Origin: Promethearchaeota archaeon
GTDB taxonomy: Archaea > Asgardarchaeota > Lokiarchaeia > Sigyniarchaeales > SOKP01
Assembly (NCBI GenBank): GCA_019057795.1
Contig: JAHLWS010000069.1
Location: forward strand, 32,001-96,000
Reading direction: 5' to 3'
Length of the DNA stretch: 64,000 bases
The first letter of the stretch is position 1; the number at the start of each line of letters is the position of its first letter. The notes beneath the pieces were generated by a model, which saw only the letters and a list, made by a program, of their open reading frames with translations, was not told the DNA's origin and made no database searches. The position numbers were made by a program, and so were the translations under genes. Positions 10,958 to 44,720 of the stretch are shown here, piece by piece.

Positions 10958-11136
10958 ATAATCTTATCTCTTTTCTGGTTCATATTTCTTATTTTTTTAA
11001 TAAAAATAATTTCTAACTTCTAATAAACCTTTTTTAGTAAATTATTGTCTAATTCATTTATTCCCTCAATTCAACTTCTAACATATTATTACTATTACAC
11101 ACTCTGCTGAAGTGTCCCAACAAGATGTGAGAATTA

Positions 11137-12423
11137 TTATAAACTCTTCTTAATAATCCCTTTATTTGGATCATGGTAATAAAGAGTATTTGGAGGGATA
11201 TCCTCACTTACTATTGTATGGGCTCCGATTCTTGAATTTTCACTAATGATTTTACCTGTCATTATGCTTACATTTATTCCGGTTTTAACGTTTGGTCCGA
11301 TAATAGTACCTAATTTTCTTCTTCTTGAATCAACTAACTGACCTTTAATAGACACCTTAACGCTTTTTTCATCAAGTCTTAAATTTGCAACTTTAGTTCC
11401 TGCTCCCAGATTTACATTCTCACAAATAATTGAATCTCCTACGTAATTAAAGTGAGGAATTGTAGTATTTGATAAAATAATAGAATTTTTAATTTCACTC
11501 GTGCCAATGTGGCAATCATTAGCAATGAAAGTATATGGTCTTATAAACGAATTAGGCCCGATTAAATTGTTATTTCCGATATAACAAGGCCCCTGAATAT
11601 AGGAGCCAGAACGAACATTAGTTCCTTCGCCAATATACACTTTCCCTGAGATTTGAACATTATCTTCAATCTTGCCTATTATTTTATTTTCTATTTTGTC
11701 TAAAAGATAACTATTGGCATCTAAAAATTGCCAAGGTAATCCTATATCGCTCCAGAAATAGTTTTTTATCGTGTAACCTGCAATATTTCCTTTAAATTGG
11801 TTTATCAGAATTTCCATAGAATCTGTAAATTCATATTCCCCTCGAATAGATTTTTCAGTTTTTTCAATTGCTTGAAAGATTTTAGATTCGAATATAAAAA
11901 TTCCTGCATTTGCTAGATTTCCTACATTCATCTCTGGTGTGGGTTTTTCAATAATTTTTTCAACAAAACCGTTAGGATTTAAAGAGATGATACCAAATTC
12001 TTCAGGATTTTTTACTTCCATTAATAAAATTATACCTTCCACCTTGTTTTCATTAAATTTTTGAACAATTTCTTGATAAACTTTAGGTTCTACTAATAAA
12101 TCTCCATACATCATTAAGAAAGGCTCGTCTTTAATAAAGTCCTTGGCAAAACCAAAAGCATGTGCTGTACCTAAATATTCTTCTTGGGTTTTATATTCTA
12201 TTTTAATTTGAAATTTATCAATTCCATTGCCAAAATAATTTCTAATTATATCTTCTTTATATCCAACTATTAATAAAATTTCATTAATCCCTGCGTCCTT
12301 TAACCCTAAGATTGTATGTTCAAGTAAAGGCTTGCCAGCGATAGGAATCAGAGGTTTTGGGCGAGAAAAAGTTATAGGCATCAATCTCTTTCCCTTTCCT
12401 GCTGCAATTATTACCGCTTTCAT
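11137..12423 (-). CDS. glmU: Archaeal bifunctional sugar-1-phosphate nucleotidylyltransferase/acetyltransferase
   Basis: AAGKGKRLMP..RPKP, EKP, RGEYE, then an LbH domain with HFNYVGDS, NLGAGT..AN and RRKLG. Confidence 0.88.
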   Translation of the reverse strand: MKAVIIAAGKGKRLMPITFSRPKPLIPIAGKPLLEHTILGLKDAGINEILLIVGYKEDIIRNYFGNGIDKFQIKIEYKTQEEYLGTAHAFGFAKDFIKDEPFLMMYGDLLVEPKVYQEIVQKFNENKVEGIILLMEVKNPEEFGIISLNPNGFVEKIIEKPTPEMNVGNLANAGIFIFESKIFQAIEKTEKSIRGEYEFTDSMEILINQFKGNIAGYTIKNYFWSDIGLPWQFLDANSYLLDKIENKIIGKIEDNVQISGKVYIGEGTNVRSGSYIQGPCYIGNNNLIGPNSFIRPYTFIANDCHIGTSEIKNSIILSNTTIPHFNYVGDSIICENVNLGAGTKVANLRLDEKSVKVSIKGQLVDSRRRKLGTIIGPNVKTGINVSIMTGKIISENSRIGAHTIVSEDIPPNTLYYHDPNKGIIKKSL

Positions 12424-12653
12424 ATAAGATATTAGTTTAAGATTATATTAAAAACTTCCTCTATAATGCCATTTAGGGCAATAGGACTATTAAACATCTC
12501 TAATAATGAGTGAAGTCAAGATCTTTAATGAAGATTCATTGTTCGCAAAATAATTATAATATCATTACAGTATCTTAACTAAAAATCCTTTCTAGTGCCT
12601 TGCATTTATTTATTATTTATATTTATACATTAAAACTAGAATTGATATGATGA

Positions 12654-15404
12654 TTATTCTATCTTCTTAGGAAGGGAGAAATAAAACGTGCTTCCCATGT
12701 TCTTCCCTTCTGATTCCATCCAAATTTTCCCCCCGTGTGATTCCACAATTCTCTTTGAAATAAATAGCCCTAAACCAGTACCATCAATTTCTAAATCAAG
12801 ACCTTGACCATAACGTTCTATTTTTCCAAATTGTTGAAAAAGTTTCTTTTTCTGATCTTCATTAAAGCCAATTCCGTTATCTTTTACTGAAACAACAACA
12901 AGCTCTTCTTTTAATTCTGTCTTTATTTCAATTTTCCCCCTGGGTGGAGTGTACTTAATCGCATTAGATAGTAAATTAGAAAGAACATCGTGAATCTCCT
13001 CTTTTTCAATATTTGCGTACAACTGGTCATGTATATCTAATTTAATTGAGTGCTTTCTTTTTTCTGCCATAGGTTCTAATTCAAGCACGCAAAAATTTAT
13101 GAGAAATGATAAGTCTTCCCTTTGCTTACTCGGTCTTAATTCGGGTGATTCTAATCTAGAAGATTTTAAAAGGTTGTTAATAATATTCTGAAGTCTATCG
13201 CAACCAGCATTTATCTCTCGTAGTTTTGAAATAATAGATGAATCTAATTGATCTTCATGTAAAGATAATATGAGTTCAGAATATCCCTTAATTGAAATGA
13301 GGGGGGTTTTTAATTCATGAGAAGATCTTCTAAGAAACTCAGATTTTAGTTTACTTACTTCTCTTAAATTTTCCTCAACATGCTTTCTCTCAGTAATATC
13401 CATGCCATATATGTTTACATAATTAGTACCTCTTATGGGTGTAAAAGTAAAGGAGTAAAAATTCTCACCAAATCTCACTTCTGATTCAGTAATTTGATTG
13501 CTTTCAAACGAATGTTTCACGTTTTCCTTTATGATATTTGGGATTTGATTATAATCTATTATGTTAAATAATTTTTGACCTGCATAGTTTATATAAATAA
13601 CTTCATCTCTATTCACTCTTAAAACGGGATAGGGATTCTCTGATGGAAATTGAGCTAAATCAAAGATTTCTTTCTCCTTTTTCTTGCGCTCGGTGATATC
13701 TGTAAATATAATTCCAAGATTATCTCCTACTTTGAACGCTCTTATCGAGAGTTGAGAGGAAGATTGTCCATCTATTCTATTAAAAATACCATCTTCTGTA
13801 GAAAACGGTTTTCCAGTTTTAATGACTTCAATATATTTGTCATATCTCCCAGTTTCTTTAAGATTTGGTACGATATCTAAGATGTTTTTTCCGATTATTT
13901 CCTCTTTAGTCATCCCTATAGTTTGTAGCGTTACCTTGTTCACATCAATATAATTCAATTGTGCATCATAAAGGACGAACCCATCGGTAGCTGAATTCAT
14001 GAAACTCGCTAATCGCTGTTCTGATTCTTTTAATTTTTGTTCTGATATCTTTTGTTTGGTAACATCTCTAAAACTCCATACACGTCCCTTAATCTCTCCT
14101 GCGTGAATTAGTGGACTAGATAAGCGATCAAAAATCCTTCCATCTTTAAATAAGAGAGTATCAAAACCTTCGCTAGCAGATCTATAAAGTTGATTTACTT
14201 TTGAAAGAAAAGCTTCTGGGTCTGTTAATTGACTTAATACATAATCTAATAATTTTTGATCATCTCTTTTTTCGATTAAATCCTGTGGAATACGCCACAT
14301 GTCCGCAAATTTAGAATTAGTGTGCGTTACTTGACCATATTCATCAACAACAAGAATCCCATCTGCAGTAGATTCTAGGGTTGACCTCAAAATTTCTTCG
14401 GATTCTCTTAATTTTTGTTCTGATATTATTTTTTCGGTAACTTCTCTAGCGAAACCGTAAAATCCGATCTTATTTCCTTCAGAATCGTGTATTAAATCGA
14501 TAAATCCTTCCAAAAATACTTGTTTTCCCCTATTCGTTAACCCTTTAGCTCTATTAGTATGAGGAAGGGGAATTCCTGATTTATAAAGTTGGTTAAACAT
14601 TTTAAATAACTCTTTAGATGTCTTTTCGTCGAAAATCAAGCGAAAATTCTTTCCTAATAGTTCTTCCTTTGAATATCCTACTGTTTTACACCAATAATCA
14701 TTCACGAAGGTAAAATTTCCCTTAAGATCGAGAGCATAATATCCTTCCATCATGTTTTCGAGAAGCTCTCTATATTTTTTCTCGGATTTTTTTAATTTGT
14801 GTTTGAATTTAGTCTGATCTGAGCCTTTGAATATCTCCCAGGTGCCCTCTCGCCTAAAAAGAGCACATTGATGATTGCGAACAGCATCCAAAATCTTAAA
14901 AGATCCGCATATTTCAAGGGAATAGGCGCAAACAGCAATTATATTATAGGAAGTGATTATATTACTTATTTCTTCCTCAAAATCGTTGAAAACTTTCCAA
15001 TCTTTATCTTCTTGCCAAAAAGTATTTCCTGTTAATCTTAATCCATTAAATCCATTATCTAACGCACCATTATATTTATCTACCCATCGATTGAGAACGC
15101 TTTGCAGGTCAAATTCGTTATTTTCCTGATACAATTCTGTATATGGAATAATCTCTATCTGATTTTTCTGTACATACGTATCAAACTTAGGTATAGCCAT
15201 TCTCATAGCCTTCTCGGCATCTTTTTCATTTAACGGTTCAGAAGTTATCCACATGCAATATTCATTATTCTCTAAACCTGCTTTAAAATAGGACACTAAA
15301 ATCTCGAGAAGATCGCCTTGTGTTTGATAAAACATACAGAAATGAGTGCCCCATGGTATAGTGCCTAAAACTTCAATCCCAGATTTTCTTTCTGATGATT
15401 TCAT
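12654..15404 (-). CDS. MEDS + multi-PAS sensor histidine kinase
   Basis: N-terminal MEDS domain (WGTHFCMFY, GLRLTG), PAS/PAC repeats ending DITE, H-box SHELKTPL, N-box NLLSNAIKY and G-boxes DNGIG and GTGLGL. Confidence 0.92.
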   Translation of the reverse strand: MKSSERKSGIEVLGTIPWGTHFCMFYQTQGDLLEILVSYFKAGLENNEYCMWITSEPLNEKDAEKAMRMAIPKFDTYVQKNQIEIIPYTELYQENNEFDLQSVLNRWVDKYNGALDNGFNGLRLTGNTFWQEDKDWKVFNDFEEEISNIITSYNIIAVCAYSLEICGSFKILDAVRNHQCALFRREGTWEIFKGSDQTKFKHKLKKSEKKYRELLENMMEGYYALDLKGNFTFVNDYWCKTVGYSKEELLGKNFRLIFDEKTSKELFKMFNQLYKSGIPLPHTNRAKGLTNRGKQVFLEGFIDLIHDSEGNKIGFYGFAREVTEKIISEQKLRESEEILRSTLESTADGILVVDEYGQVTHTNSKFADMWRIPQDLIEKRDDQKLLDYVLSQLTDPEAFLSKVNQLYRSASEGFDTLLFKDGRIFDRLSSPLIHAGEIKGRVWSFRDVTKQKISEQKLKESEQRLASFMNSATDGFVLYDAQLNYIDVNKVTLQTIGMTKEEIIGKNILDIVPNLKETGRYDKYIEVIKTGKPFSTEDGIFNRIDGQSSSQLSIRAFKVGDNLGIIFTDITERKKKEKEIFDLAQFPSENPYPVLRVNRDEVIYINYAGQKLFNIIDYNQIPNIIKENVKHSFESNQITESEVRFGENFYSFTFTPIRGTNYVNIYGMDITERKHVEENLREVSKLKSEFLRRSSHELKTPLISIKGYSELILSLHEDQLDSSIISKLREINAGCDRLQNIINNLLKSSRLESPELRPSKQREDLSFLINFCVLELEPMAEKRKHSIKLDIHDQLYANIEKEEIHDVLSNLLSNAIKYTPPRGKIEIKTELKEELVVVSVKDNGIGFNEDQKKKLFQQFGKIERYGQGLDLEIDGTGLGLFISKRIVESHGGKIWMESEGKNMGSTFYFSLPKKIE

Positions 15405-30653: not shown

Positions 30654-31025
30654 GTGAATACTATGAACGGAAAAATGAAATTTTATTCATTGTTAGGATT
30701 TTTCCAATTAGTGCTTATATTAATTGTGTTTTTTAGTGTAGATGGAATTATCACTATGGTTGCAGCACAAACAGAGAGTTTTGATTACTATAATTCTCCA
30801 ACAGCGGCGATTTTAGCGATTTCAGCAGCAATCTCCCTTTCAGCAGCAGTATTAGGAAGTGCAATCGCTTTAAAAACAGTAGGTACAGCAGCAATATCAT
30901 CTTTATCCGAAAGAGAAGAAAGTTTTTTTAAAGCATTCTTAGTTGTTGCATTGTGTGAGGCTTTAGCCGTATATGGTTTAATTGTTGCCATCCTCCTCTG
31001 GACAAAAATCCCCACGCCAGGATAA
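30654..31025 (+). CDS. atpK: A/V-type ATPase proteolipid subunit K (c)
   Basis: Single hairpin with the conserved Glu in VALCEALAVYG, preceded by an N-terminal hydrophobic segment. Confidence 0.9.
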   Translation: MNTMNGKMKFYSLLGFFQLVLILIVFFSVDGIITMVAAQTESFDYYNSPTAAILAISAAISLSAAVLGSAIALKTVGTAAISSLSEREESFFKAFLVVALCEALAVYGLIVAILLWTKIPTPG

Positions 31026-31065
31026 TCTTGATTTACATTTAAAATCGTTAAGAAGGTGTTTTTTT

Positions 31066-32127
31066 ACGAGTGAAATTATTCCGTCTTATGCTTATACATA
31101 TATTAAAATCGATTATTTAAAACTATTAATAATTGATGATGACACTTTACTAAAACTTAAAAGAATCTACGATATTGATGACTTCATGGAATCTATTAGA
31201 CCTTACTATCCTAATTTAGATTTCAAAGAAAATACTATTGAAGATATTGAAGTAGCTCTTAATAATAATTATATTAAGCTAATTGGTAAAATTTTACATT
31301 ATTCCCCCCAAAACATGAGAATATTCTTAAGAAATTATCTCATGAAATTTGAAATACAAAATCTCAAACAAATAATCATCAGTTTAATTTTAGGAATTAA
31401 TCTAGAAGAAAAAAGAAAATACATTAATTTTTTAGTTGAAGAATATTTAGATAACACGGAATTCATTGAAGAATTGCTTAAATTTACTTCTTTAGACGAA
31501 ATACAATTATTTCTTAAAAGAACTAAATACAATATAGCTATTAGAGAAGGGATTCTTTACTTTAAGAAAAATAAAGAAATTTTTATTCTGGAAGCTTTTT
31601 TAGATCAATTATATTATAAGCAACTTAATGCTCAACTGGAACGTTTAAATAAAAAAGAGAAAACAATGATATCGTTGTTTGTGAAATATAAAACTGAAAT
31701 TTATAATATAAATGTGATTTATAGGGGAATAAAAAATAAAATTGAAGGAAAATTATTATCTCAATTTCTTGTAAATAATTATTTATTCCTAAATGAAAGT
31801 AAATTAGAACAATTGTTAAATCTTGATAATGTTGATGAATTTATATCAATTATTAAAGAATATTTGAAGAATATTAAGGAAACAAAACCATTTTTTATCA
31901 AGCTAAAAATTAATCAAAAACACTTAATTAGGTCAATTGAACAATTTTATATAACTTATTATTTTAAGAAATTTAAGATTAAAATTGACGATATTGATTT
32001 TTTCACCATTTACAAAATTTTAGAAATACTTATAAAAAAAGGGGGAGAAATCCGATTTATTATATTACCCCAGGTAATTAAGATCCTTCACTATAAGTTT
32101 AAAGCGTTAAAAACGCAGAAATTTTAA
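31066..32127 (+). CDS. atpC: A/V-type ATPase subunit C (d); probable ACG start
   Basis: N-terminal YAY motif, FEIQNLK, LEAFLDQLYY and EIYNINVIYRG; operon position fits. The ORF-track TTG start at 30982 lies inside atpK. Confidence 0.8.
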   Translation, partial: TSEIIPSYAYTYIKIDYLKLLIIDDDTLLKLKRIYDIDDFMESIRPYYPNLDFKENTIEDIEVALNNNYIKLIGKILHYSPQNMRIFLRNYLMKFEIQNLKQIIISLILGINLEEKRKYINFLVEEYLDNTEFIEELLKFTSLDEIQLFLKRTKYNIAIREGILYFKKNKEIFILEAFLDQLYYKQLNAQLERLNKKEKTMISLFVKYKTEIYNINVIYRGIKNKIEGKLLSQFLVNNYLFLNESKLEQLLNLDNVDEFISIIKEYLKNIKETKPFFIKLKINQKHLIRSIEQFYITYYFKKFKIKIDDIDFFTIYKILEILIKKGGEIRFIILPQVIKILHYKFKALKTQKF

Positions 32128-32187: not shown

Positions 32188-32499
32188 ATGCCAATTTTTA
32201 AATGGGTTGAAGAAATCGAAAATATTTATGAAAATTTGATTGAAAACGCTAAAAAAGAAAGTTTAGAAGACATTGAGAAATTAAAAGCTTCATTAGAAAA
32301 AAATATGGAAAAAAAACTTCATAATAATCAAGAAATTATTAATTCTGCCTTAAAAACACTTTCAAAAGAAATTGATGAAAAATCATTAAAATTCGGAGAG
32401 TCAATATCAAAATTATATAGCAAAATAGAAAAAAATTATTATGAAAATAAGGAAGGATTAATGAATTTAATATTTGAGAAATTAGGATTTGATTTTTAA
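32188..32499 (+). CDS. A/V-type ATPase subunit H/G (peripheral stalk)
   Basis: 103-aa Glu/Lys-rich helix (IENAKKES) within the ATPase operon. Confidence 0.65.
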   Translation: MPIFKWVEEIENIYENLIENAKKESLEDIEKLKASLEKNMEKKLHNNQEIINSALKTLSKEIDEKSLKFGESISKLYSKIEKNYYENKEGLMNLIFEKLGFDF

Positions 32500-32816
32500 T
32501 GCCTGATAAAAAAATACATGTATTAGGTTACGACGAAATAGTTTCATTGTTTGGTCTTTTAGGTATTGAAGGAACGATAATTAAACATAATGAAGATTTT
32601 TTAAAAATTTTTAAAAATTTAATAAAAAAATCTTCTGTTGCTATGATAATTATATACATGGATTTATCAGACGAAAATCTCGAATTTCTAACAGATTTTA
32701 AAATAAATAATAGGACACCATTTGTATATTTATTACCAAATATTTTTCAACAAGATATAAAGAATCAAGATAAGGTATTAAACAAAATTTACGAATTGAT
32801 AGAAGAAATTATATAA
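32499..32816 (+). CDS. atpF: A/V-type ATPase subunit F
   Basis: IHVLGYDEIVSLFGLLGI resembles the IAVIGD.DTV.GF.LAG motif; size and position fit. Confidence 0.8.
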   Translation: MPDKKIHVLGYDEIVSLFGLLGIEGTIIKHNEDFLKIFKNLIKKSSVAMIIIYMDLSDENLEFLTDFKINNRTPFVYLLPNIFQQDIKNQDKVLNKIYELIEEII

Positions 32817-32850: not shown

Positions 32851-33555
32851 ATGAAAGAGAGATTTGGAAAACTAAGTTTGTATTTAATAAATCAAGCTGA
32901 AAATGAGATAAAGAAGATCAATCAACAATCCCTCTTTCAAATGGCAGAAGTTAGAAAAAAAGCTAGGGAAAGAACTTCAGAAAGCTCTTTAAAATTGAAA
33001 GCGCATTTTAACGAAACATACAATAAACTATTAAATAATTCTCTATCTTCTTATCTCTTGAAAATTAAAGAAGAAGTATTAAAATCTAAAAACAAATTAA
33101 TGTTGGAACTTATTTCAGATTTAACAGACTTAATAAAAGACAAAATAAAAAATAATTATTCGAGCTACATTAGTTTTTTACTAAAAAATCTTGAAAATAT
33201 CAAGGATTTTGTGGATAAACCCCCGGAGATTATCATTCACTTAAATTCAATAGATTTTAAATATTTCAGCAATAATATGGGAAAGATTGAAAGTATATTA
33301 AGAAATAAAATAAGTTTAGTCAAGTCAGAAGAAGAATTTACGGGAGGTTTTAAGTGTGTAATTATGGCCGGACATTTATCTTACGATTATACGATTGAAA
33401 ATCAATTAAAGAAGATCACACCGATTATAGAAATTGAGTTTTCAAAGATTTTTTCTGACTCCGAGACTGATATTAGAGCTCTAGAAAATAATTATATTGA
33501 ATTTATCCAAAATCAAAAATTAGCTGTAAACGAATATTTAAAGAAATATGAATGA
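32851..33555 (+). CDS. atpE: A/V-type ATPase subunit E
   Basis: N-terminal coiled coil and C-terminal GGF...DYTIE motif; overlaps the atpA start. Confidence 0.8.
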   Translation: MKERFGKLSLYLINQAENEIKKINQQSLFQMAEVRKKARERTSESSLKLKAHFNETYNKLLNNSLSSYLLKIKEEVLKSKNKLMLELISDLTDLIKDKIKNNYSSYISFLLKNLENIKDFVDKPPEIIIHLNSIDFKYFSNNMGKIESILRNKISLVKSEEEFTGGFKCVIMAGHLSYDYTIENQLKKITPIIEIEFSKIFSDSETDIRALENNYIEFIQNQKLAVNEYLKKYE

Positions 33556-35389
33556 AATTAAAGAAAAAATTAAGTCCGGATATATCTCATCTATAAACGG
33601 ATCCTTAATAGAAATAAAAGGCTTAGAAAACTATGTACGGCTAAATGATTTAATTAAGGAGTCTAAACATAAAATTTTAGGCGAAGTAATCCAAATTTAT
33701 TCAGATCATGTTACTGCTCAATGTTTTGAAAATACTTCTAATTTAAAATTAAATGAAGAAGTTATTAGTTTACAAGAACCCTTATCAATGGAATTAGGTC
33801 CTGGTTTATTAGGACATATCTTTGATGGTATTCAAAGACCATTGGAAGCAACTTTTTTGAGTTCTAAAGGCGAAGGATTTTTAAAGAGAGGAGTTGATTT
33901 ACCTGCTTTATCAAGAGCGAAAAATTGGCATTTTAAACCAGTAAAAAAGATAAATGATTATGTAAGTACGGGGTATGTAGTTGGAACCGTTCAGGAAACA
34001 GAACTCATTGAACATAAGATTATGATTCCATTAGGAATTTCCGGAAAAATAACCTATATTGCAGAAGAAGGAGAATATACTGTTAGTGACGAAATTTACC
34101 GCTTGAAAAATGGTTCCAAAGAAAAATCGTTTAATATGATTCAAAAATGGCCAATCACCAAAAATAGGCCTTATAAAGAGCGAGGCTTTCCTAATGAACC
34201 ACTAATTACAGGAATGAGGGTAATCGATTTACTATTTCCAATAGTAAAGGGAGGTACAGTTGCCGTTCCTGGAGGATTTGGAACGGGCAAAACGGTAATC
34301 CAACAATCTCTAGCAAAATGGTGTAACGCAGATATAATTATTTTTGTTGGATGTGGAGAACGAGGAAACGAGATTGCAGACGTCTTAAAACAGTTTTCTG
34401 AAATAAAAGATCCAAAAAGTGGACGCCCGTTATTAGAACGAATTGTTATCCTAGCTAATACATCTAATATGCCCGTATCTGCGCGAGAAGCAAGTATATT
34501 TTCTGGAGTTACAATTGGTGAATATTTTAGAGATATGGGGTATGATGTAGCAGTTTTAGCAGACAGTACTTCAAGATGGGCAGAATCATTACGGGAAATA
34601 TCAGGGTTATTAGAAGAAATGCCGGCCGAAGAAGGATATCCGGCTTATTTACCCTCTAAAATTTCTAGCTTTTATGAAAGAGCTGGTGTTGTTAAGATAT
34701 TGGGAGAAAAAGATTCTGGAAAAGAGAAATTCGGGTCTATAACAATTATTGGTTCAGTATCACCGCCTTCAGGAGATTTCAGTGAGCCCGTTACTTCAAC
34801 TACAAAGCGTTTTGTTCAGGCTTTTTGGGCATTAGATGCGAGTTTAGCATATTCTAAACATTATCCTGCGATTAATTGGTTAAATTCATATTCAAAATAT
34901 CCTGAATTCATCTCAGATTGGTGGTTTGAAAGAGATATTTATTGGCCTGAGATAGATATAGATTGGTACGAGTGTAGAAAACAAATAAATAGCATCCTAT
35001 CTCAAGAAAACGAACTAAAAAATGTCACCCAATTAGTTGGTGAAGAAAACTTACCAGAAAATCAACAATTTATCCTATTCATTTCACGATTGATTAGAAA
35101 TGGTTTATTAATTCAAAATGCCTTTGATTCTATAGATTGTTTTACAGACGTTAAAAAATTAATTGGAATAGTAAAACTCATTCTATTACTATTTAAAGAA
35201 GGCAATCAACTCTTAAAGCAAGGTTTTCTAATTGAAGATATCAAAGAACTCGATGTTGTAAATGATATTCTTAGGACTTGCCGTACTGTTCCTAATAATA
35301 ATTTTGTTCAAATAGAGAAATTAAGAAAGAAAATGCTAAACGAAATAGAGTCATTAAAATTAACATATGGTATTTTTAGGAAAAAATGA
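33548..35389 (+). CDS. atpA: A/V-type ATPase catalytic subunit A
   Basis: ELGPGL, DGIQRPL, P-loop [39 protein letters not shown] and FYERAG. Confidence 0.96.
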
Positions 35390-36777
35390 GCGTAATTTAT
35401 AGAAAAATAAAACAAATTGTTGGACCTTTAATATTTCTAGATAATAGACACGATGTACAATATGGTGAAATCGTTAAAATTCATTCTGATGATGGAAAAG
35501 AACGTATAGGCCAAGTCGTAAAAATGGATGAAAAGATTATAACAATTGAAGTATTTGAAAATACAGCTGGACTTTCTTCAGAAAATTCTACAATTACTTT
35601 TACTGAAGATTCTTTTAAGATAAAAATTTCAAGTGATATGATTGGAAGAGTTTTTAACTCCTTAGGAAAACCTATTGATATTAATACGAAACAAGTGTTA
35701 GATTCAGACATTTTTACCGAAATTGAACGGGATATAAACGGTTTACCAATTAATCCTTTTGCAAGAGAATATCCAACGCAAGTCATCCAAACGGGAATAT
35801 CGGTAATAGACGGTCTTTTTACCTTAATAAGAGGACAAAAACTCCCAATATTTAGTGGTCAAGGATTACCCCATAATCTATTAGCTGCTCAAATTGTTAC
35901 TCAAGCAAAAGTTTTGACAGAAGAACCATTCTTAATAATTTTTTGTGGAATTGGAATTATCCAAGATGAAGCAATTTTTTTTATGAATCGTTTTAAAGAA
36001 AGTGGAAACATACAAAATATCATTTCTTTTATCAATTTTGCTGACGATCCAATAATGGAAAGACTAATAATTCCGCGCGTAGCATTAACTACTGCGGAAT
36101 ATTTTGCATTTGAAAAAGATATGCATGTTCTTGTTGTTTTAATAGACATGACGAATTATGCTGAAGCTTTAAGAGAACTAAGCTCCGCCAAAGAAGAGAT
36201 TCCTAGCAGAAAGGGGTATCCGGGTTATTTATACACTGATTTCGCATCGATCTATGAAAGAACTGGTAAAATTAAAGGTAAAAAAGGGACAATAACCCAA
36301 TTACCGATTTTGACGATGCCTAACGACGACATTTCTCACCCAATTCCGGATACAACAGGGTACATAACTGAAGGTCAGTTAGTTCTAAATCGTAACTTAG
36401 AAAAAAAAGGAATATATCCCCCTTTTGAAGTCTTAGCGTCTATATCACGACTTATGAAAGACTCAATCGGTAAAGATACTACTAGGGAAGACCATGCTGA
36501 TGTTAACTCTCAACTATTAGCATCGTATTCAGCTGCCCTTGAAGTTAGAGATCTTATATCGATTGTGGGGGAAGATGGATTAAACTTAAATCAAAAATCG
36601 TTATTAAGATTTGGTAACTTTTTCGAACAAAATTTTTTAAATCAAGGGTACACAGAGGAAAGGGATTTTTCAACGACTCTCAATATTGCATGGAAAGCTT
36701 TATCTAATTTACCAAAAAATCAATTATTTAGAATACATGACGATTTTATTGATAAGTATTACATTGAAGAGGTGTAA
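35386..36777 (+). CDS. atpB: A/V-type ATPase subunit B
   Basis: [44 protein letters not shown] and arginine-finger SRLMK. Confidence 0.96.
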
Positions 36778-36783
36778 GTATCA

Positions 36784-37422
36784 ATTAGTTTTAGAGAGTT
36801 TAAGCCCACAAAAACAAATTTAATGAGTCTACAGAAAAGGTTAACTTTTGCTGTTAAAGGCGAAAATTTTCTAAAATTTAAATTAGAACAAATAATATTT
36901 GAAATCAAAAAAAATTGGGATAATTATTTAAAACAACGTGAAATCTTTTTAGAATTATTCAAAGAAACTATGATTAAACTTAATCAAACATATAAAGAAA
37001 TGGGTAAACGAGAATTTAATTTAATTAGCAAATTAAGTAAAATCCAATATAACCCAATGATTTCTATAAATTATATAAAGAAGATTGGAACATTAGTGCC
37101 AATAATAGATTACAAACTGATACGGGAGGAATCGCTTCCAGCTTACTCTTTTGAAAATACATCTCATTATCTTGATGATTTGATTATTCTTTTAATAAAG
37201 TTTTTTGAAAGCCTTATAATTTTTTCACAGTCTGAAGATCTATTATTGAAACTCTCCCTAACTTTTAAAAAAATAAATCGTAGGATAAATGGTCTAAAGA
37301 ATGTAATAATTCCTGAACTACAAATAGACATTAAAAAAATTAAAGCTATATTAGAAGAAATTGAAAGAGAGAATTATGTTCGGTTAAAAAATACAAAAGA
37401 TCTTATTACAAAAAATGTTTAA
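36784..37422 (+). CDS. atpD: A/V-type ATPase subunit D; probable non-ATG start upstream of ATG 36823
   Basis: INRRINGLKNVIIP and LEEIERENYVRLK. The conserved N-terminal PT motif (KPTKTNL) is encoded in frame upstream of the first ATG. Confidence 0.85.
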   Translation: MSFREFKPTKTNLMSLQKRLTFAVKGENFLKFKLEQIIFEIKKNWDNYLKQREIFLELFKETMIKLNQTYKEMGKREFNLISKLSKIQYNPMISINYIKKIGTLVPIIDYKLIREESLPAYSFENTSHYLDDLIILLIKFFESLIIFSQSEDLLLKLSLTFKKINRRINGLKNVIIPELQIDIKKIKAILEEIERENYVRLKNTKDLITKNV

Positions 37423-37439: not shown

Positions 37440-39728
37440 ATGACAAAGAAAAGCCCAATGGAATTATTTAAGGTAAATATTAATCGTAATTACAAGGATC
37501 TTCTATTACAACACCTATCCCAGCTTAATCTAGTTCACATTAAAACGAAACCTGAAATAAGCGACATAATTGAAAAAGATAAAGTTTTGTTTGATAGAAT
37601 TAAGAAATTAAGCCAAAATTTAGAAACCTTATTCAAAAACCTTAATATTACTGAATCTGACTTCCAGAAATTAATATTTGAAAAAGAAGAGAGAAAAGAA
37701 TTTGATGCTAAAGATATAGACGATTTGTTAAATCAAATATTGAGTGAAATTAATTTTTATTCAAACCGTGTTAATGAGTTAAAAAGATATATGATCACTA
37801 TCAAAGTGGAATTGGATAAAATAAATTTGATTCATGTAAGTTACATATTTTTGGAAAAATATGATTTAACGCGAACTAAATTATCGAAGTTTAATCGATT
37901 AGAATTTAAAGCCTTTACAACCTTCTCAAAGAACCTCGAAAATATAGAGAATCTTTTTGAATTTTCTTATTTTCCGAATTTTTTTCAGTATGATTTTTTA
38001 AGCGATGAAAGAATTGCCTTTTTCGTAATCTATCCAAAGGAAAAAGAAGAGGCATTTAGAGAGAGAATACGCCTCATTCATGCCGAAGAAGTACCGATTC
38101 TTAAAAAATATTTGCAGTCAAATGGGATAAACTTTCCTCGTATAGCAGATGAAATCAAGTTTATTGTGTCGTCCTTAAATAAATATCAAAAGGAATTAGA
38201 ACGATTAAGAGACAATAACATACTATTATTTGCTGCTACGAATGAGATCATGCAAAATATAGAAGAATATAATTGGGCTTCACATCAATTCGAAGAATTA
38301 TCTTTAAATCGATTAAGTTTGAGTTTTTTTATTCCACAAGAAAAAAAACAAGAAATACAAAAGGGGTTGATTGAAAAGTTCCAAGATCAAATAACGATTG
38401 AATCAATCGCTATTACAAAAGATAGATCTGTTAGTTTAAAAGAAGATAAGAGCCATATACGCCCAAGAAAGTCACCAGACTCCAAAAGGAAAGACTCTTC
38501 ATTAAAGGAAGAACCGACCAATAATAATAAAGAAATTAAAAAGGATTTAAGAAATACAGCTCCTACAATTATGAAGAATAATTTCTTTATGAGACCCTTT
38601 GAAACTATTACTAAAATGTACGGTGTTCCTGCTTATTCAGAAATTGATCCCACTCCCTTTTTGGCAATAACATTCCCAATTTTGTTTGGATTGATGTTTG
38701 GGGATATTGGACATGGTATCACATTAATTATCTCCGGTTTAATTGGAGCATTTGTCTTTAGGAACAAAAAAAGTACCGATTTCTTAAATTTTTGCTGGAT
38801 CATTCTGTATTGTGGAATCGGTTCTATACTAGTTGGGATTTTATATGGCGAATTTTTTGGGATGCATGACATTGAATTATTTGGAACGATTTTTTTACAC
38901 TTAGAACCTGTTACCATTCCATTTTTGAATATCACTTTACACAATCCATTGGAAAATATAATGGTTGTTTTTAAGTTTGCTATATTAATTGGGGTAGTAC
39001 ATATTAATTTGGGCTGGTTCATACAATTTTTGAATTATTGGAAGCAGCATAGAAAATACTTAGGTTTTACTGACTCTTTAGTTAAAATCTGGTTATTAAC
39101 TGGGGGAACTATTTTAATTTTTACTTTTGGTTTTGATATCTATGTATGGATGGCACCTCCTTACCCAATTTTGTTGCCCTTGCTCCCAGGTATATTATTA
39201 ATACTCTTAAAACCATTTGGCAAAATTTTCCACATTTCTTATTTGAAAGAAGAGACAATTGGAGGCCTTATAGGGGAAGGTACAATGGAGTCATTTGAAA
39301 CATTATTATCGATAATGAGCAATGTAGCATCTTATATAAGATTACTAGCTTTAGCTTTAGCACATATCTCTTTAATGGTCGCAATTCAAGCAATGGGGAA
39401 TTTATTTCAAGGTGGGGCGTTTATTAACGAGATAATTAATATAGTAGGATTGATATTAGGTAATACGCTTGTTATTTTACTAGAAGGATTACTTGTTTTT
39501 ATAAATACCATCAGGCTCCATTTTTATGAATTTTTCTTCAAATTCTATCAAGGAACTGGAGTTACATATATCCCTTTTTATTTAGACGATGAATATTCTA
39601 TCGTTTCCTTTAAATTAAGCGCCATAAAAGATGTTATTTCCGAAGAAATAGATAAAGAGATTGAATCAAAGAAAACTCATGAGGATATAATTAAAGCAGA
39701 AAAATACATTTATAAAAAATATTTATAA
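37440..39728 (+). CDS. atpI: A/V-type ATPase subunit I (a)
   Basis: PTIMKN, YGVPAYSEIDPT, FGLMFGDIGHG, essential Arg in SYIRLLALALAH, and IRLHFYEFFFKFY. Confidence 0.95.
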   Translation: MTKKSPMELFKVNINRNYKDLLLQHLSQLNLVHIKTKPEISDIIEKDKVLFDRIKKLSQNLETLFKNLNITESDFQKLIFEKEERKEFDAKDIDDLLNQILSEINFYSNRVNELKRYMITIKVELDKINLIHVSYIFLEKYDLTRTKLSKFNRLEFKAFTTFSKNLENIENLFEFSYFPNFFQYDFLSDERIAFFVIYPKEKEEAFRERIRLIHAEEVPILKKYLQSNGINFPRIADEIKFIVSSLNKYQKELERLRDNNILLFAATNEIMQNIEEYNWASHQFEELSLNRLSLSFFIPQEKKQEIQKGLIEKFQDQITIESIAITKDRSVSLKEDKSHIRPRKSPDSKRKDSSLKEEPTNNNKEIKKDLRNTAPTIMKNNFFMRPFETITKMYGVPAYSEIDPTPFLAITFPILFGLMFGDIGHGITLIISGLIGAFVFRNKKSTDFLNFCWIILYCGIGSILVGILYGEFFGMHDIELFGTIFLHLEPVTIPFLNITLHNPLENIMVVFKFAILIGVVHINLGWFIQFLNYWKQHRKYLGFTDSLVKIWLLTGGTILIFTFGFDIYVWMAPPYPILLPLLPGILLILLKPFGKIFHISYLKEETIGGLIGEGTMESFETLLSIMSNVASYIRLLALALAHISLMVAIQAMGNLFQGGAFINEIINIVGLILGNTLVILLEGLLVFINTIRLHFYEFFFKFYQGTGVTYIPFYLDDEYSIVSFKLSAIKDVISEEIDKEIESKKTHEDIIKAEKYIYKKYL

Positions 39729-39748: not shown

Positions 39749-40273
39749 ATGAAAACCGAAAACACGAAAGAAAACTCATCCAAGAAAAATATTTTTCTCA
39801 AAATATTACTACCAATTGTTTGTCTAGTTGTGATAATCTTTTTATATATTATTTTGATGGAATTTGGAGTACATCCACTTCTCATTATTTTAATACTAGG
39901 ATTTGTGCTGTTACTGTTTGTAGGATCCTTTTTTATGGAAAAAAAGCAAAGCCCAATTTATTCAAAAATTTTTCCTTATAAAAAAAGAAGAAGTCAAGAT
40001 TTTCATCGAAAATTGGAAATAAAGATAGAAACGGAACCTGAGAAACCGGTTCAAAAAGATTTTAAAGAAGTGAATCTAAACTTTAAGTATCGCAAATCCC
40101 TTATGAATAAATGCGAAAATTGCGGGATGCTTATAACAAGCTACAGGAAAAATTGCCCTACATGTGGTCAAGCACTTGAAATGAAAGAAATTGTGAAGAA
40201 ATGTAAAAATTGCGGAATGTTAATTACAAAGTCTGTGAAAATATGTCCAATTTGTAGAAAGCGAACAATATAA
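39749..40273 (+). CDS. Two-TM membrane protein with a C-terminal double zinc ribbon
   Basis: Two hydrophobic helices followed by CENC..CPTC and CKNC..CPIC. Confidence 0.8.
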   Translation: MKTENTKENSSKKNIFLKILLPIVCLVVIIFLYIILMEFGVHPLLIILILGFVLLLFVGSFFMEKKQSPIYSKIFPYKKRRSQDFHRKLEIKIETEPEKPVQKDFKEVNLNFKYRKSLMNKCENCGMLITSYRKNCPTCGQALEMKEIVKKCKNCGMLITKSVKICPICRKRTI

Positions 40274-40315: not shown

Positions 40316-42127
40316 ATGGTCACAGAAACAAATAATTCTAATTTGGGTTTTATATCTGCCGTCAATGGATCATTAGTGGAGGTTAAAGGATTAGAAAATC
40401 AGGTTCGGCTTCACGATTTAATTAAGATTAGTAAATATAACATTATTTGTCAGGTAATTCAAATCTACGCGAATCGAGTAATAGCCCAATCTTTTGAAAG
40501 TACTAATAGTATAAAGTTACACGATAAAGTAATTAATCTCAACGAACCTTTATCCATGGAGTTAGCACCAGGATTGTTAGCAAATGTTTTTGATGGAATT
40601 CAGAGACCTTTAGATCTTACTTTCAGCCAGTTTAAAGAAGGAAGATTAGGAAGAGGCCTTGAATTTCCCTCTTTATCAAGAACAAAAAAATGGCATTTTA
40701 TTCCATCAAGCAAAATAAATGATTCTTTAAGTAGTGGAGATGAAATTGGTACCGTTCAAGAAACATCCTTTTTTGAACATAAAATAATGATTCCTCCTGA
40801 AAATTCTGGTATTTTATCGTTTATTGTTGACGAAGGTGATTATACAATCATCGAAGAGATATATACCTTGAAAAAGCAGAATGTAGAAAAATCTTTTTGT
40901 ATGTTACAAAAATGGCCAGTCACTATGAGCAAACCTTATAGCTCAAAAGAGCAACCTAGCGAACCTTTACTAACTGGCTTGCGTATTGTAGATTTATTGT
41001 TCCCCATAGCTAAAGGTGGTACTTTTGCGGTTCCAGGAGGGTTTGGAACTGGTAAAACAATTATTTCACAACATATAGCTAAATTTTGTAACGCAGAAAT
41101 TTGCGTTTTTATAGGATGTGGAGAGCCTGGCAATGAAATTGCAAATTTTCTAAAACAATTCACGGAAACTATCGATCCCAAAACGGGAAGACCTTTAATA
41201 GAACATATTGTTCTTATTGCTAATACTTCAAATATGCCCGTATCTGCTCGCGAAGCAAGCCTTTTTTCAGGAATTACAATAGCAGAATATTATAGAGATA
41301 TGGGTTACGATGTTGCCGTTGTAGCAGATAGTATTTCGAGATGGGCAGAATCATTAAGGGAGATCTCAGGGTTATTAGAGGAAATGCCTGCTGAAGAGGG
41401 TTATCCTGCGTATTTGCCATCGAAACTATCAAGTTTCTTTGAACGAGCCGGTGTTATTACAACTTTAGGGAAAAAAAAAGGATCAATTACAATCATAGGA
41501 TCGTTATCTCCACCAGCTGGTGATTTTAGCGAACCGGTTACCGCAGCTACTAAACGTGTTGTTCAGGGGATTTGGGCTTTAGACCCTAAATTAGCATATC
41601 TAAAACATTATCCTGCAATTAGTTGGATCAGTTCATATTCCAATTATCCTGAGTATGTAGCAGAATGGTGGAGCGAGAGAGACATTGTTTGGCCTGAGAT
41701 AAATTTAAACTGGTTTGAGTGTAGAAAACAAGTAAATGAGATTTTAGCAAAAGAAAACGAGTTGAAATATCTTACCCAGCTACTAGGGCTAAAGAATTTA
41801 GCTGAAGATCAAAGGTTAGAAATTTTTACGGCAAATCTAATAAGAAATGCTTTTTTAGTTCAAAACGCTTTCAACGAAGTAGATAGTTATACGAGTAGTA
41901 GAAAATTGCTAGGGTTAGTAAAAGTAACACTTTTATTATATAATAAAACTAAATCACTCGTAAAGCGAGGCTTTCTAATTGATGAGAAGAGGTGTGATGA
42001 AATTCTCAATGAGATTATGAAAATTAGCCATTATGCTCCTAATGAAAATTTTGAACAAATTGAAGAGCTAAGGGATAAAATTAATAATGAATCTTTAGGT
42101 TTAGTTTTTAAAGTTCATCGAAGATAG
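40316..42127 (+). CDS. atpA: Second A/V-type ATPase subunit A paralogue with an altered catalytic motif
   Basis: Full-length similarity to 33548..35389. The P-loop is intact, but it has GCGEPGNE in place of GCGERGNE. Confidence 0.92.
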   Translation: MVTETNNSNLGFISAVNGSLVEVKGLENQVRLHDLIKISKYNIICQVIQIYANRVIAQSFESTNSIKLHDKVINLNEPLSMELAPGLLANVFDGIQRPLDLTFSQFKEGRLGRGLEFPSLSRTKKWHFIPSSKINDSLSSGDEIGTVQETSFFEHKIMIPPENSGILSFIVDEGDYTIIEEIYTLKKQNVEKSFCMLQKWPVTMSKPYSSKEQPSEPLLTGLRIVDLLFPIAKGGTFAVPGGFGTGKTIISQHIAKFCNAEICVFIGCGEPGNEIANFLKQFTETIDPKTGRPLIEHIVLIANTSNMPVSAREASLFSGITIAEYYRDMGYDVAVVADSISRWAESLREISGLLEEMPAEEGYPAYLPSKLSSFFERAGVITTLGKKKGSITIIGSLSPPAGDFSEPVTAATKRVVQGIWALDPKLAYLKHYPAISWISSYSNYPEYVAEWWSERDIVWPEINLNWFECRKQVNEILAKENELKYLTQLLGLKNLAEDQRLEIFTANLIRNAFLVQNAFNEVDSYTSSRKLLGLVKVTLLLYNKTKSLVKRGFLIDEKRCDEILNEIMKISHYAPNENFEQIEELRDKINNESLGLVFKVHRR

Positions 42128-42163: not shown

Positions 42164-42766
42164 TCATGGTTTGAACCATTCAAAGAAGTAATAACTCATT
42201 GTTAATGGATTGGCGATTACAAATTTCTTCCTTACAGAGGTTGCCAACCTTCCAGCTCGAACCATATCAATCGCAGTTATTTTTGCATCATGAGGTAATA
42301 CATGAGCAATAAACGCTGAATGCTCTAACCCTGGTCCTTTCTTATACACTACAAAATCAGCGCCAAATTTTAGCCCCGGACGAGGAATGTATCCCTTTTT
42401 CCTTAAATCTTGGTAAATAATATATTTTTCTTCAAATTTATGATGTATTTTTTTTCCTATTTCGTGAAATTCTTTGGTAGAAAGGTATTTATCGCTCTTC
42501 GCGTCAAATATAGTAATTTTTTCTTTTTCTAACAAGAAAAGTGCTTCAATTAGGGATAATTCCGATGGTTTAGAGAAATATTCTAAACGTGGTTTACTAA
42601 TCCCGAGAGGAGCCCCAAAAAACTTTTGTTTAACATATAAATAGGAAGCATGCAGTGGATTAAACACAATTACGCGATTATTAATAAATTTAGTTGGAAT
42701 CTTTTTAGGGATGTCGTCGTCGTTTAAATCCTCCAGCGAAATGGGAGTCTCTTTTTCTTTACTCAT
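42164..42766 (-). CDS. endA: tRNA-splicing endonuclease
   Basis: LSLIEALFL, YQDLRKKGY, GLKFGADFVVY (Tyr), GPGLEHS (His) and RLATSVRKK (Lys). Confidence 0.93.
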   Translation of the reverse strand: MSKEKETPISLEDLNDDDIPKKIPTKFINNRVIVFNPLHASYLYVKQKFFGAPLGISKPRLEYFSKPSELSLIEALFLLEKEKITIFDAKSDKYLSTKEFHEIGKKIHHKFEEKYIIYQDLRKKGYIPRPGLKFGADFVVYKKGPGLEHSAFIAHVLPHDAKITAIDMVRAGRLATSVRKKFVIANPLTMSYYFFEWFKP

Positions 42767-42891: not shown

Positions 42892-43815
42892 TTGGTATTA
42901 AGAGAATCTTCTGCCGCGGGAATTTATTATCCACGATCCAAATCGGATTTAATTAAAATGTTGGATGAATCCTTTTTAGATAAAGAATTTGGCCCAAATG
43001 AAAAATTCGACTCTTTAAACGAAAAAACAAGAACAGTATTTGGTGGAATATCTCCACACGGGGGTTACGTTTATTCTGGTAGCTGTGCGGCGCATATGTA
43101 TTTACATTTGTTTAAGGAAAAAATCCCGGATACAGTTGTAATATTAGCCACTGAAGATTTAGGATATAACAACATTGCTTTATTAGAAGTAGGTGAATGG
43201 GAAACTCCTTTAGGTAACTTAGAGGTTGATAGCGATTTGTCTCAAAAATTGCTAAAAACGAGTAGCATGGTTAAAGGAGATGATTCTGCATTTGTTGGAT
43301 TTCCCTTTGGAAGAGAATACTACATTGATGTACAATTGCCGTTTATTAAATATTGTGCGTTAAAGAGAGAGATAAAAATCTTGCCAATTATTATTTCTAT
43401 AATGGATTATGATAAATTAGATAAATTATCTGAAAATATCGCGAGAGCAGTCCAATCCTTAAACAAAGATATAGTATTTATAGGTTCTACAGATATGAGT
43501 CATATTATTTGTAAAGATGAATTTACTGCTGAACTTAAAGTGCAAGAAATGCTCTTAGCAGATAAAACTGTAATCAAATCGTTTACAGAATTTAATCCAA
43601 AGAAGATTTTTTTTGATGCGTCAAAATCTTCTATAAAAGGGCCACAAATTCTTACCACATTAATGCTAATATGTAAAAGGATGGGTGCTAACGAATGTAG
43701 AGCTCTAAGTTATTACACTAGTTATGACAAAGGTGGAGGAGCTGGTCCATGTAAATATAATGTAGGATATTTTTCGGGGATTATTATAAAAGATTTAATA
43801 GAAAAAGAACAATAA
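42892..43815 (+). CDS. MEMO1 / AmmeMemoRadiSam protein B paralogue, degenerate metal site
   Basis: AGIYYP, SPHGGYVYSG, WETPLG, VQLPF, TDMSH and VGYFSG are present, but several conserved His/Cys residues are missing. Confidence 0.85.
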   Translation: MVLRESSAAGIYYPRSKSDLIKMLDESFLDKEFGPNEKFDSLNEKTRTVFGGISPHGGYVYSGSCAAHMYLHLFKEKIPDTVVILATEDLGYNNIALLEVGEWETPLGNLEVDSDLSQKLLKTSSMVKGDDSAFVGFPFGREYYIDVQLPFIKYCALKREIKILPIIISIMDYDKLDKLSENIARAVQSLNKDIVFIGSTDMSHIICKDEFTAELKVQEMLLADKTVIKSFTEFNPKKIFFDASKSSIKGPQILTTLMLICKRMGANECRALSYYTSYDKGGGAGPCKYNVGYFSGIIIKDLIEKEQ

Positions 43816-43829
43816 TTATTTAGAAGAAG

Positions 43830-44720
43830 GTGACAAAATTGGTTATAAGAAAAGCATCACATGCGGGAAGTTGGTACCCTGGCAAAAAAGAAGATTTAAT
43901 AAAAAACCTTGATTATTTGTTTTCTGATAAAGAGTTTGGGCCAGGTAAATTACCTGAGACGCTAAACCAAGATAGTAGGACTATAATTGGAGGTGTATCT
44001 CCTCATGCGGGATATACCTTTTCTGGAAGATGTGCCGCCTTTACGTATTTGAACTTATTTAAAGAAAAAATCCCGGATACAGTTATCGTATTAGGGACTG
44101 ATCATGTTGGCTATGGAAAGGTGGCTCTATTAGGAGATGGCGCTTGGGAAACGCCTTTAGGAAACTTACTAATTGACGATGAATTATCTAAAAAGATTTT
44201 AGATACAAGTGAAATTATTGTTGAAGATCGTTCTGCCTTCACTGGCTTCATGGAACAAGAACACAATATTGAAATACAATTACCTTTCATTAAATATTGC
44301 GCTAAAGATAAAGATGTAAAAATAGTAACGCTAAAAATTGGAATTAGAAGGGATTATAACATATTTGAGAAAATAGCTTCTGATATATCTGCAGCAATTA
44401 AGGCGTTAAATAAAGATATTGTTATTGTAGCATCGTCTGATATGTCACATAAAGAGGTTTTTGATACAAATCAATTAAGTGAGTTTAAGAAATTTGATCA
44501 AGATGTTATTGATGCTTTTATAGAATTAAATCCTAATAAAACTCTTTCAGCTGCTTCAAAAACAACCGTATGCGGAGCCCAAACAATAACGACTTTAATG
44601 TTAATTTGTGAAAAATTAAACGCAACTAAAGGTGAGTTGTTAAAATATTATACTAGTAGCGATATTAGGGGAGGATATGGATATTGTGTTGGATATTTTT
44701 CGGGAATTATAGTAAAATAA
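43830..44720 (+). CDS. MEMO1 / AmmeMemoRadiSam protein B
   Basis: HAGSWYP, SPHAGYTFSG, GTDH, EHNIEIQLPF, SSDMSH, TVCG and VGY. Confidence 0.92.
   Translation: MTKLVIRKASHAGSWYPGKKEDLIKNLDYLFSDKEFGPGKLPETLNQDSRTIIGGVSPHAGYTFSGRCAAFTYLNLFKEKIPDTVIVLGTDHVGYGKVALLGDGAWETPLGNLLIDDELSKKILDTSEIIVEDRSAFTGFMEQEHNIEIQLPFIKYCAKDKDVKIVTLKIGIRRDYNIFEKIASDISAAIKALNKDIVIVASSDMSHKEVFDTNQLSEFKKFDQDVIDAFIELNPNKTLSAASKTTVCGAQTITTLMLICEKLNATKGELLKYYTSSDIRGGYGYCVGYFSGIIVK

Follow-up and report, generated by a model that had tools for sequence, protein, structure and literature searches.

The stretch of DNA analyzed here, a 64-kb window (64,000 nucleotides) from contig JAHLWS010000069.1 of a Promethearchaeota archaeon, contains a single A-type (A1Ao) ATP synthase operon. 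In addition to the canonical catalytic subunit A (positions 33548–35389 of the window), this operon encodes a second A-like protein of 603 residues, which we designate A' (40316–42127); both genes lie on the forward strand. A' is a selectively maintained, functional paralog of the catalytic subunit A in which the arginine of the GER motif at the catalytic site is replaced by proline. It is probably a built-in non-working or regulatory subunit of the rotary head. We give an even chance to a more specific proposal drawn from the sequences, namely that A' binds nucleotide, is catalytically crippled, pairs with the single B subunit of the A1 head, and acts as a modulator or brake of the enzyme. 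No description of an A paralog lacking this arginine was found in full-text searches of the literature.

The frames of A and A' are both free of stop codons and encode 613 and 603 residues, respectively, with 62% identity over the full length. A preliminary description of this DNA had reported the motif GCGERGNE in A and GCGEPGNE in A', together with an intact frame and an intact P-loop, and the translations and codon positions bear this out. The arginine codon of A is CGA (34361–34363, after GAA), and the proline codon of A' is CCT (41126–41128, after GAG). Pro271 of A' replaces the γ-phosphate- and inorganic phosphate (Pi)-binding arginine of the GER motif, while the preceding Glu270 (GAG, 41123–41125), the catalytic general base, is kept. 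The Walker A motif or P-loop, GGFGTGKT, is present in both proteins; in A' it spans residues 241–248 (41036–41059) and is intact. Its conservation was followed in 25 A' orthologs from genomes that have both genes. Seven of its eight residues are invariant among them, and the eighth, Thr248, is Thr in 24 and Ser in one. Glu270 (25 of 25), the following GNE, Asp338 of the Walker B motif, and Arg342 (the Arg of SRW) are likewise invariant in A'.

By its architecture and its profile scores, A' is a member of the subunit A family and is not of the B/α type. It matches all four Pfam domains of subunit A (PF02874, PF16886, PF00006, and PF22919), including the A-specific barrel-sandwich (bulge) insertion. 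Its score against NF003220 is 696.5 bits (cut-off, 470), and A also scores far above this cut-off. B-subunit models score A' at 135 bits, compared with 696 for the A model, and A' nests among A sequences. Neither protein reaches the 972-bit cut-off of TIGR01043, the archaeal A equivalog (A', 685; A, 757). Because the canonical A of the same operon is also below the cut-off, this reflects the divergence of the lineage and not of A' alone. Among the features of a catalytic subunit, A' has the Walker A motif, the catalytic glutamate, and the Walker B aspartate. It lacks the GER arginine, which is found in all 53 A sequences compared, and the acidic rotor-facing loop (G-x-[DE]-x-L-P-E).

The replacement is conserved. 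We searched 400 Asgard genomes with a degenerate DNA pattern encoding GCGEPGNE, and 75 of them gave a match, one in each. All of these belong to the family of the window within the Lokiarchaeia (Asgard), hereafter f1, where they comprise the genome of the window and 74 of the 134 other genomes, in six genera. None of the 265 Asgard genomes outside f1 gave a match to this pattern. The preliminary description had asked whether GEP is conserved across Asgard A' orthologs or private to this assembly. The second possibility is rejected by the spread over 75 genomes. The first holds for the A' orthologs, with Pro in 115 of the 115 sequences collected, but its scope was too wide, as A' occurs in a single family. 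All four proline codons are used (CCT 14, CCA 11, CCG 4, and CCC 1). In the genus of the window, 16 genomes, including that of the window, have two A genes, one with GER and one with GEP in each case; the spacing from A to A' is ~6.7 kb where one contig holds both. The same Arg/Pro split recurs in every f1 genome with two copies, far beyond chance. Among the best 122 database matches to A', 100 have GEP, and the 22 with GER are A orthologs. These database relatives come from metagenome-assembled genomes (MAGs) of Lokiarchaeota/Promethearchaeota, such as Loki_b31 and Loki_b32, and all database A' sequences have GEP.

A' evolves under strong constraint. The ratio of nonsynonymous to synonymous substitution rates (dN/dS; Nei-Gojobori method, NG86) for ortholog pairs is 0.08–0.22 for A' and 0.06–0.15 for A. 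The check proposed in the preliminary description thus gave a value of ~0.1 for A', as low as that for A. Over the 25 genomes with both genes, the per-site entropies of A' and A are correlated (Spearman, 0.74). The low dN/dS and the correlated entropies indicate that A' is a working protein with constraints much like those of A. The conservation profile of A' matches that of A over the N-terminal barrel, the bulge domain, and the nucleotide domain, and it is relaxed at the rotor-facing loop and in the C-terminal 60 residues.

The consequences of losing the arginine can be judged from studied enzymes. In the V1 of Enterococcus hirae, the γ-phosphate of adenylyl imidodiphosphate (AMP-PNP) is held by A-Lys238, A-Arg262, and B-Arg350 (PMC5095293); Glu261-Arg262 of this A subunit is the ER of the GER motif. 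The equivalent substitutions in Escherichia coli F1, βR182Q and βR182K, abolish ATP synthesis and Pi binding and leave a low ATPase activity, and βR182 contributes to the binding of MgATP but not of MgADP (PMC3268026). The two studies support the earlier statement that the arginine is a γ-phosphate/Pi ligand whose loss cripples catalysis. Alanine mutants of other catalytic residues of F1 still rotate, 10^3–10^4 times more slowly (PMC5380711). From this literature, the proline site of A' should bind nucleotide and yet be very slow or dead in chemistry. The E. coli mutants resemble A' in that the equivalent residue is lost and nucleotide binding is kept, while Pi binding, the transition state, and ATP synthesis are lost (PMC3268026). 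A' differs from these laboratory enzymes in being a natural, selected gene, in having Pro rather than Gln or Lys, and in its extra changes at the rotor loop. Engineered hybrid F1 with one slow β subunit is a further laboratory analog of A'.

The other differences between A' and A are few and coherent. Asn277 (41144–41146), in the helix after the GER loop, replaces an Asp found in every A (Asn in 88% of A', Asp in 100% of A), and Leu316 (41261–41263) replaces an Ile found in every A (99% of A' versus 100% of A). Leu429 (41600–41602), present in 100% of A', takes the place of Ser or Ala in A. It aligns with R424 of Pyrococcus horikoshii A and sits three residues before the adenine-stacking aromatic residue, Tyr432, which corresponds to P. 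horikoshii F427 by alignment. Residue 211 is Lys in A' and Arg in A, in ~90% of the sequences of each. The helix after the P-loop, VIQQSLAKW, is near-invariant in A, with three single exceptions in 25 sequences, and is relaxed in A'. No compensating basic residue is fixed anywhere in A' in its alignment with A.

The loop at residues 491–497 of A' (41786–41806) reads G-L-K-N-L-A-E in the window and corresponds to G-E-E-N-L-P-E of A, of which the first six positions are invariant in 25 A sequences. In A' the loop takes the form G-[EQVLD]-[KRLGY]-N-L-[PALTS]-E, most often with E/Q-K in place of the EE of A. The second acidic position is Lys or Arg in 16 of the 25 A' sequences and is otherwise variable, and the invariant acidic pair of the A loop is missing. 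As judged from its sequence, the loop is the counterpart of the DELSEED region of F1 β, facing the central shaft. The equivalence is based on the atpD profile, whose positions 107–408 match residues 198–519 of A' and place the loop at ~380–386, and on a motif pattern. We take this pattern, G-x-D/E-x-L-S/P-E, to be common to the A loop and the DELSEED region.

The genus g12 defines which of these differences are minimal. Here, A and A' from one genome share 81% identity, compared with the usual ~60%, which points to gene conversion or slow divergence. The pair still differs at R271P, I316L, F415V, and S429L and by the change of EE to VK in the loop, and these differences are the minimal A' signature. 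Because they have been retained despite the 81% identity, it can be argued that the signature sites are what selection maintains.

The sequences indicate that A' arose by one duplication of the resident A within a single Lokiarchaeial family. A lineage-specific duplication had been suggested from a WWxERDIxWPEI segment shared by the two copies, and this suggestion is confirmed. A' occurs only in f1, and the segment is a real insertion of 6–7 residues that is common to the A and A' of f1 and absent from P. horikoshii A and from sister-family A subunits. Because A' nests among the A sequences of the family and shares their private insertion, duplication is favored over transfer, and a horizontal origin was ruled out. 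Within the genus of the window, A' forms one clade (Shimodaira-Hasegawa-like approximate likelihood ratio test, 99), and its branching mirrors that of A. In a quick LG+G4 tree with five more genera, the backbone was unresolved and A' fell into three groups; a single family-wide A' clade was not rejected by the approximately unbiased test (p = 0.39). Four basal f1 genomes, each from a different one of four genera without GEP (g14, g16, g20, and g23), branch outside the group formed by all A and A' sequences from A'-bearing genomes.

A' has also been lost. In four congeners of the window's genome that are without A' (G019, G003, G001, and G006), the gene for a zinc-ribbon protein that otherwise precedes A' (Zn) is directly followed by endA. 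G017, the sister of G019, has A'; therefore, A' has been lost several times, and the repeated losses imply that it is accessory. Six genomes gave a GEP match without a GER match. Of the four that were checked, three also lack B, and the contig of the fourth starts at B; these cases are assembly gaps, and A' as a sole catalytic subunit was rejected. Completeness is 69% and 74% for the two further GEP-only genomes, outside that check. Beside an assembled operon, A' was in no case the only A.

Some other A loci are unusual in their own right. In G008, a 100% complete genome of the same genus as the window, the only A (G008:C24, ~187–196 kb) is very divergent, with ~47% identity and a long branch. 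The locus is rearranged, with I-K-K on one strand and B and A on the other, which suggests that the ATPase operon was replaced. Two ATPase loci, separate from one another, occur in G031, of the sister family f4. Their A subunits are both of the GER type and share 54% and 47% identity with A'; the pair appears to represent two complete enzymes, not the addition of an A'. The A frames of G186 (G186:C188:30097–33552) and G034 (G034:C65:18543–21920) are ~1140–1150 residues long and give a split match, consistent with an intein, and many representatives of 900–1130 residues resemble them in this.

The operon of the window runs, on the forward strand, from the K subunit (30654–31025) through the C subunit (30982–32127), an H-like protein of 103 residues (32188–32499), the F subunit (32499–32816), and the E subunit (32851–33555) to A. 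It continues with the B (35386–36777), D (36823–37422), and I (37440–39728) subunits, the Zn gene (39749–40273), and A'. The operon end is marked by the convergent endA gene for tRNA-intron endonuclease on the reverse strand (42164–42766). A' is thus encoded in the same ATPase operon as B, D, I, and K. The order K-C-H-F-E-A-B-D-I-Zn-A'|endA is unchanged across the six genera, and the endA boundary is kept at every locus examined. The genome assembly is 4.95 Mb in size and 100% complete by marker genes; B, D, F, E, I, and K are each present in single copy, and only three proteins, A, B, and A', match PF00006 (the α/β ATPase family). Because this B is the only one of the genome, any hexamer containing A' must use it. 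The 40 nucleotides 5' of A', considered for a ribosome-binding site or promoter, are AT-rich and show no conservation across orthologs. Past endA, the window has a tandem pair of MEMO1/AmmeMemoRadiSam-B family genes (42892–44720), of which most related loci show one. In G217, a single-contig MAG of 3.3 Mb, the operon is split, with A and B at 2.19 Mb and I-Zn-A'-endA at ~3.06 Mb.

The Zn gene, between I and A', encodes a membrane protein of 174 residues, which has hydrophobic stretches in its N-terminal part and a double zinc ribbon made of four CxxC pairs. The protein is fast-evolving (25–87% identity). It may be an unrecognized accessory of the Lokiarchaeial A1Ao complex. Whether or not A' is present, its gene follows I (atpI) across f1 and in two sister-family genomes; the gene is older than A'. 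A role as an A'-specific partner or tether was rejected because the gene also follows I in the A'-less congeners and in the sister-family genomes, so that the two are not a co-inherited pair.

The braking proposal can be put as a series of steps. A' would still bind Mg-nucleotide but would have lost Pi binding and normal transition-state stabilization, and its site would be very slow or dead in synthesis and hydrolysis alike. With one copy each of B, D, F, E, I, and K in the genome, A' is expected to pair with B, and it would take one or more of the A positions in the A3B3 head. Mixed heads would have fewer working sites and would stall in the hydrolysis direction, which makes a role as a brake or modulator plausible. 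The rotor loop of A' would no longer need its acidic pair. A' would then be an accessory brake or modulator, dispensable enough for several losses. A more elaborate version, which we hold only tentatively, assumes asymmetric heads of the composition A2A'B3 or AA'2B3. The A' site would hold ATP and latch the head against wasteful hydrolysis, and proton-driven rotation would still force the site open; A' would be an encoded one-way brake and a third type of head subunit. A "gear-shift" with fewer ATP per turn at low ion-motive force was dropped, as a dead 120° step dissipates torque.

Several points weigh against a brake in the head. The mean entropy over the 25 genomes is 0.97 bits for A' and 0.78 bits for A, so that A' is slightly less constrained. 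Within the genus, at least three lineages have lost A', and the cell can do without it. Its entry into the head is deduced solely from its conservation and from the absence of other partners. The catalytic glutamate is strictly kept and would be needless in an inert subunit; therefore, residual chemistry or tight ATP binding must matter. Finally, a crippled subunit could serve several purposes, braking among them, and the data do not discriminate between these.

Alternatively, A' could act outside the rotary head, as a free or B-bound nucleotide sensor, as an assembly or storage chaperone for B, or as a partner of a protein such as Zn. The rotor loop and the C-terminal 60 residues are relaxed, as expected without torque transmission, A' is dispensable in several lineages, and in G217 it has remained next to I and Zn, apart from K to D. 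However, the conservation profile of A' over the barrel, bulge, and nucleotide domains is that of A, and its membership in the operon has been kept in six genera. Zn predates A' and persists without it and is thus no partner specific to A'. We consider an action outside the head doubtful.

It is less likely still that A' is a catalytically competent isoform in which the proline is tolerated or compensated and the affinity or kinetics are altered. The retention of the glutamate is the best argument for it, and the invariance of the GNE, the Walker B aspartate, and the SRW arginine, the P-loop, and a dN/dS as low as that of A point the same way. The slow rotation of the F1 alanine mutants (PMC5380711) would also allow it. 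However, no basic residue has become fixed in A' to replace the arginine, and with a single B, no partner-specific compensation is possible. Even the conservative βR182K enzyme of E. coli cannot synthesize ATP (PMC3268026), and A' does not occur as the only A where an operon is assembled.

Decay of a duplicated gene, or an artifact of sequencing or assembly, has virtually no chance of explaining A': the missing essential catalytic residue is all that speaks for it, and it was ruled out by the 75 independent genomes and ~100 database clusters, the dN/dS of ~0.1, the varied synonymous proline codons, and a frame that is intact in all of ~30 A' loci except that of G012, where the tblastn match has a single in-frame TGA.

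The four-domain architecture of A', with its bulge, is common to the solved A subunits of archaeal A1Ao and bacterial V/A-type enzymes (P. horikoshii, 1VDZ/3I4L; Thermus thermophilus, 3W3A; E. hirae, 3VR2), which A' matches with E values of 1e-147 to 1e-167. It is also like them in its P-loop, catalytic glutamate, Walker B motif, and location in an ATPase operon. In contrast to them, A' has Pro for the GER arginine (R264 of P. horikoshii by alignment; R262 of E. hirae), mostly Asn for the conserved Asp six residues past it, and mostly Lys for the acidic residue of the loop, and it accompanies a normal A as a second copy.

The B subunit of A/V-ATPases and the α subunit of F-ATPases originated by duplication of a catalytic subunit and lost catalysis while keeping the fold and the place in the hexamer (PMC10656485). 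By analogy, A' looks like a recent and partial replay of this origin. B and α are ancient, have their own alternating positions, and have lost the catalytic glutamate, and B has also lost the P-loop. In contrast, A' is young and limited to one family, groups with A, and keeps the glutamate and the P-loop, and it would compete with A for positions.

Degenerate A-like proteins are not unique to A'. When 150 representative A-like relatives were compared by local alignment at the ER pair, 146 were aligned; the pair was intact in 129 and lacked E or R in 17. The degenerate pairs seen were GR, AR, DR, LS, IC, AN, ES, EK, KR, EQ, and KQ, and none of the 17 had EP. They include P0178, P0183, P0189, P0213, P0215, P0229, P0231, P0235, P0244, P0253, P0262, and P0266, as well as L091:10001–11842. 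Unlike A', most of them have lost the glutamate and not the arginine, and in P0183 and in the genome G194 the degenerate protein is the sole A of its operon, not an added copy. P0183 (SCGARGNE), on a metagenome contig, serves as A in an I-K-E-A-B operon that is ordinary in other respects and lies beside gap-pgk-tpi-secG. G194 belongs to genus g20 of f1 and is 97% complete. Its only A (G194:C32:43135–44955; L081, ~11136–12929, reverse strand) has GAVGTGKT and GCGIRGNE. The catalytic glutamate is replaced by Ile and the arginine is kept, which leaves the sole catalytic subunit devoid of its general base. There is only a single A and a single B, and neither the zinc-ribbon gene nor A' was detected in the locus.

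The finding also concerns annotation and phylogeny. A' is labeled "V-type ATP synthase subunit A" in the database and may inflate ATPase counts or pass for a second type of ATPase. A transporter survey reported both an A-type and a V-type ATPase in a Loki MAG (PMC7997004), for which A' is one possible cause.

Rotary ATP synthases have been described with three identical catalytic subunits. To our knowledge, they depart from this only through the ancient division between catalytic and non-catalytic subunits, which predates the last universal common ancestor. A' is a new candidate for a third head subunit, recently evolved and kept through the whole radiation of f1 (~75 species sampled). Its single, precise lesion affects the arginine that binds phosphate, and the loop facing the rotor is changed as well. 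Were A' to be part of the head, it would offer a natural experiment on the asymmetry of sites, the regulation of ATP hydrolysis, and the evolution of pseudoenzymes. If the heads are asymmetric as in the version above, they would be the first natural departure from the rule of three identical catalytic sites, and A' would be a living intermediate on the path that once led to B and α, in hosts that are energy-limited relatives of the eukaryotic ancestor.

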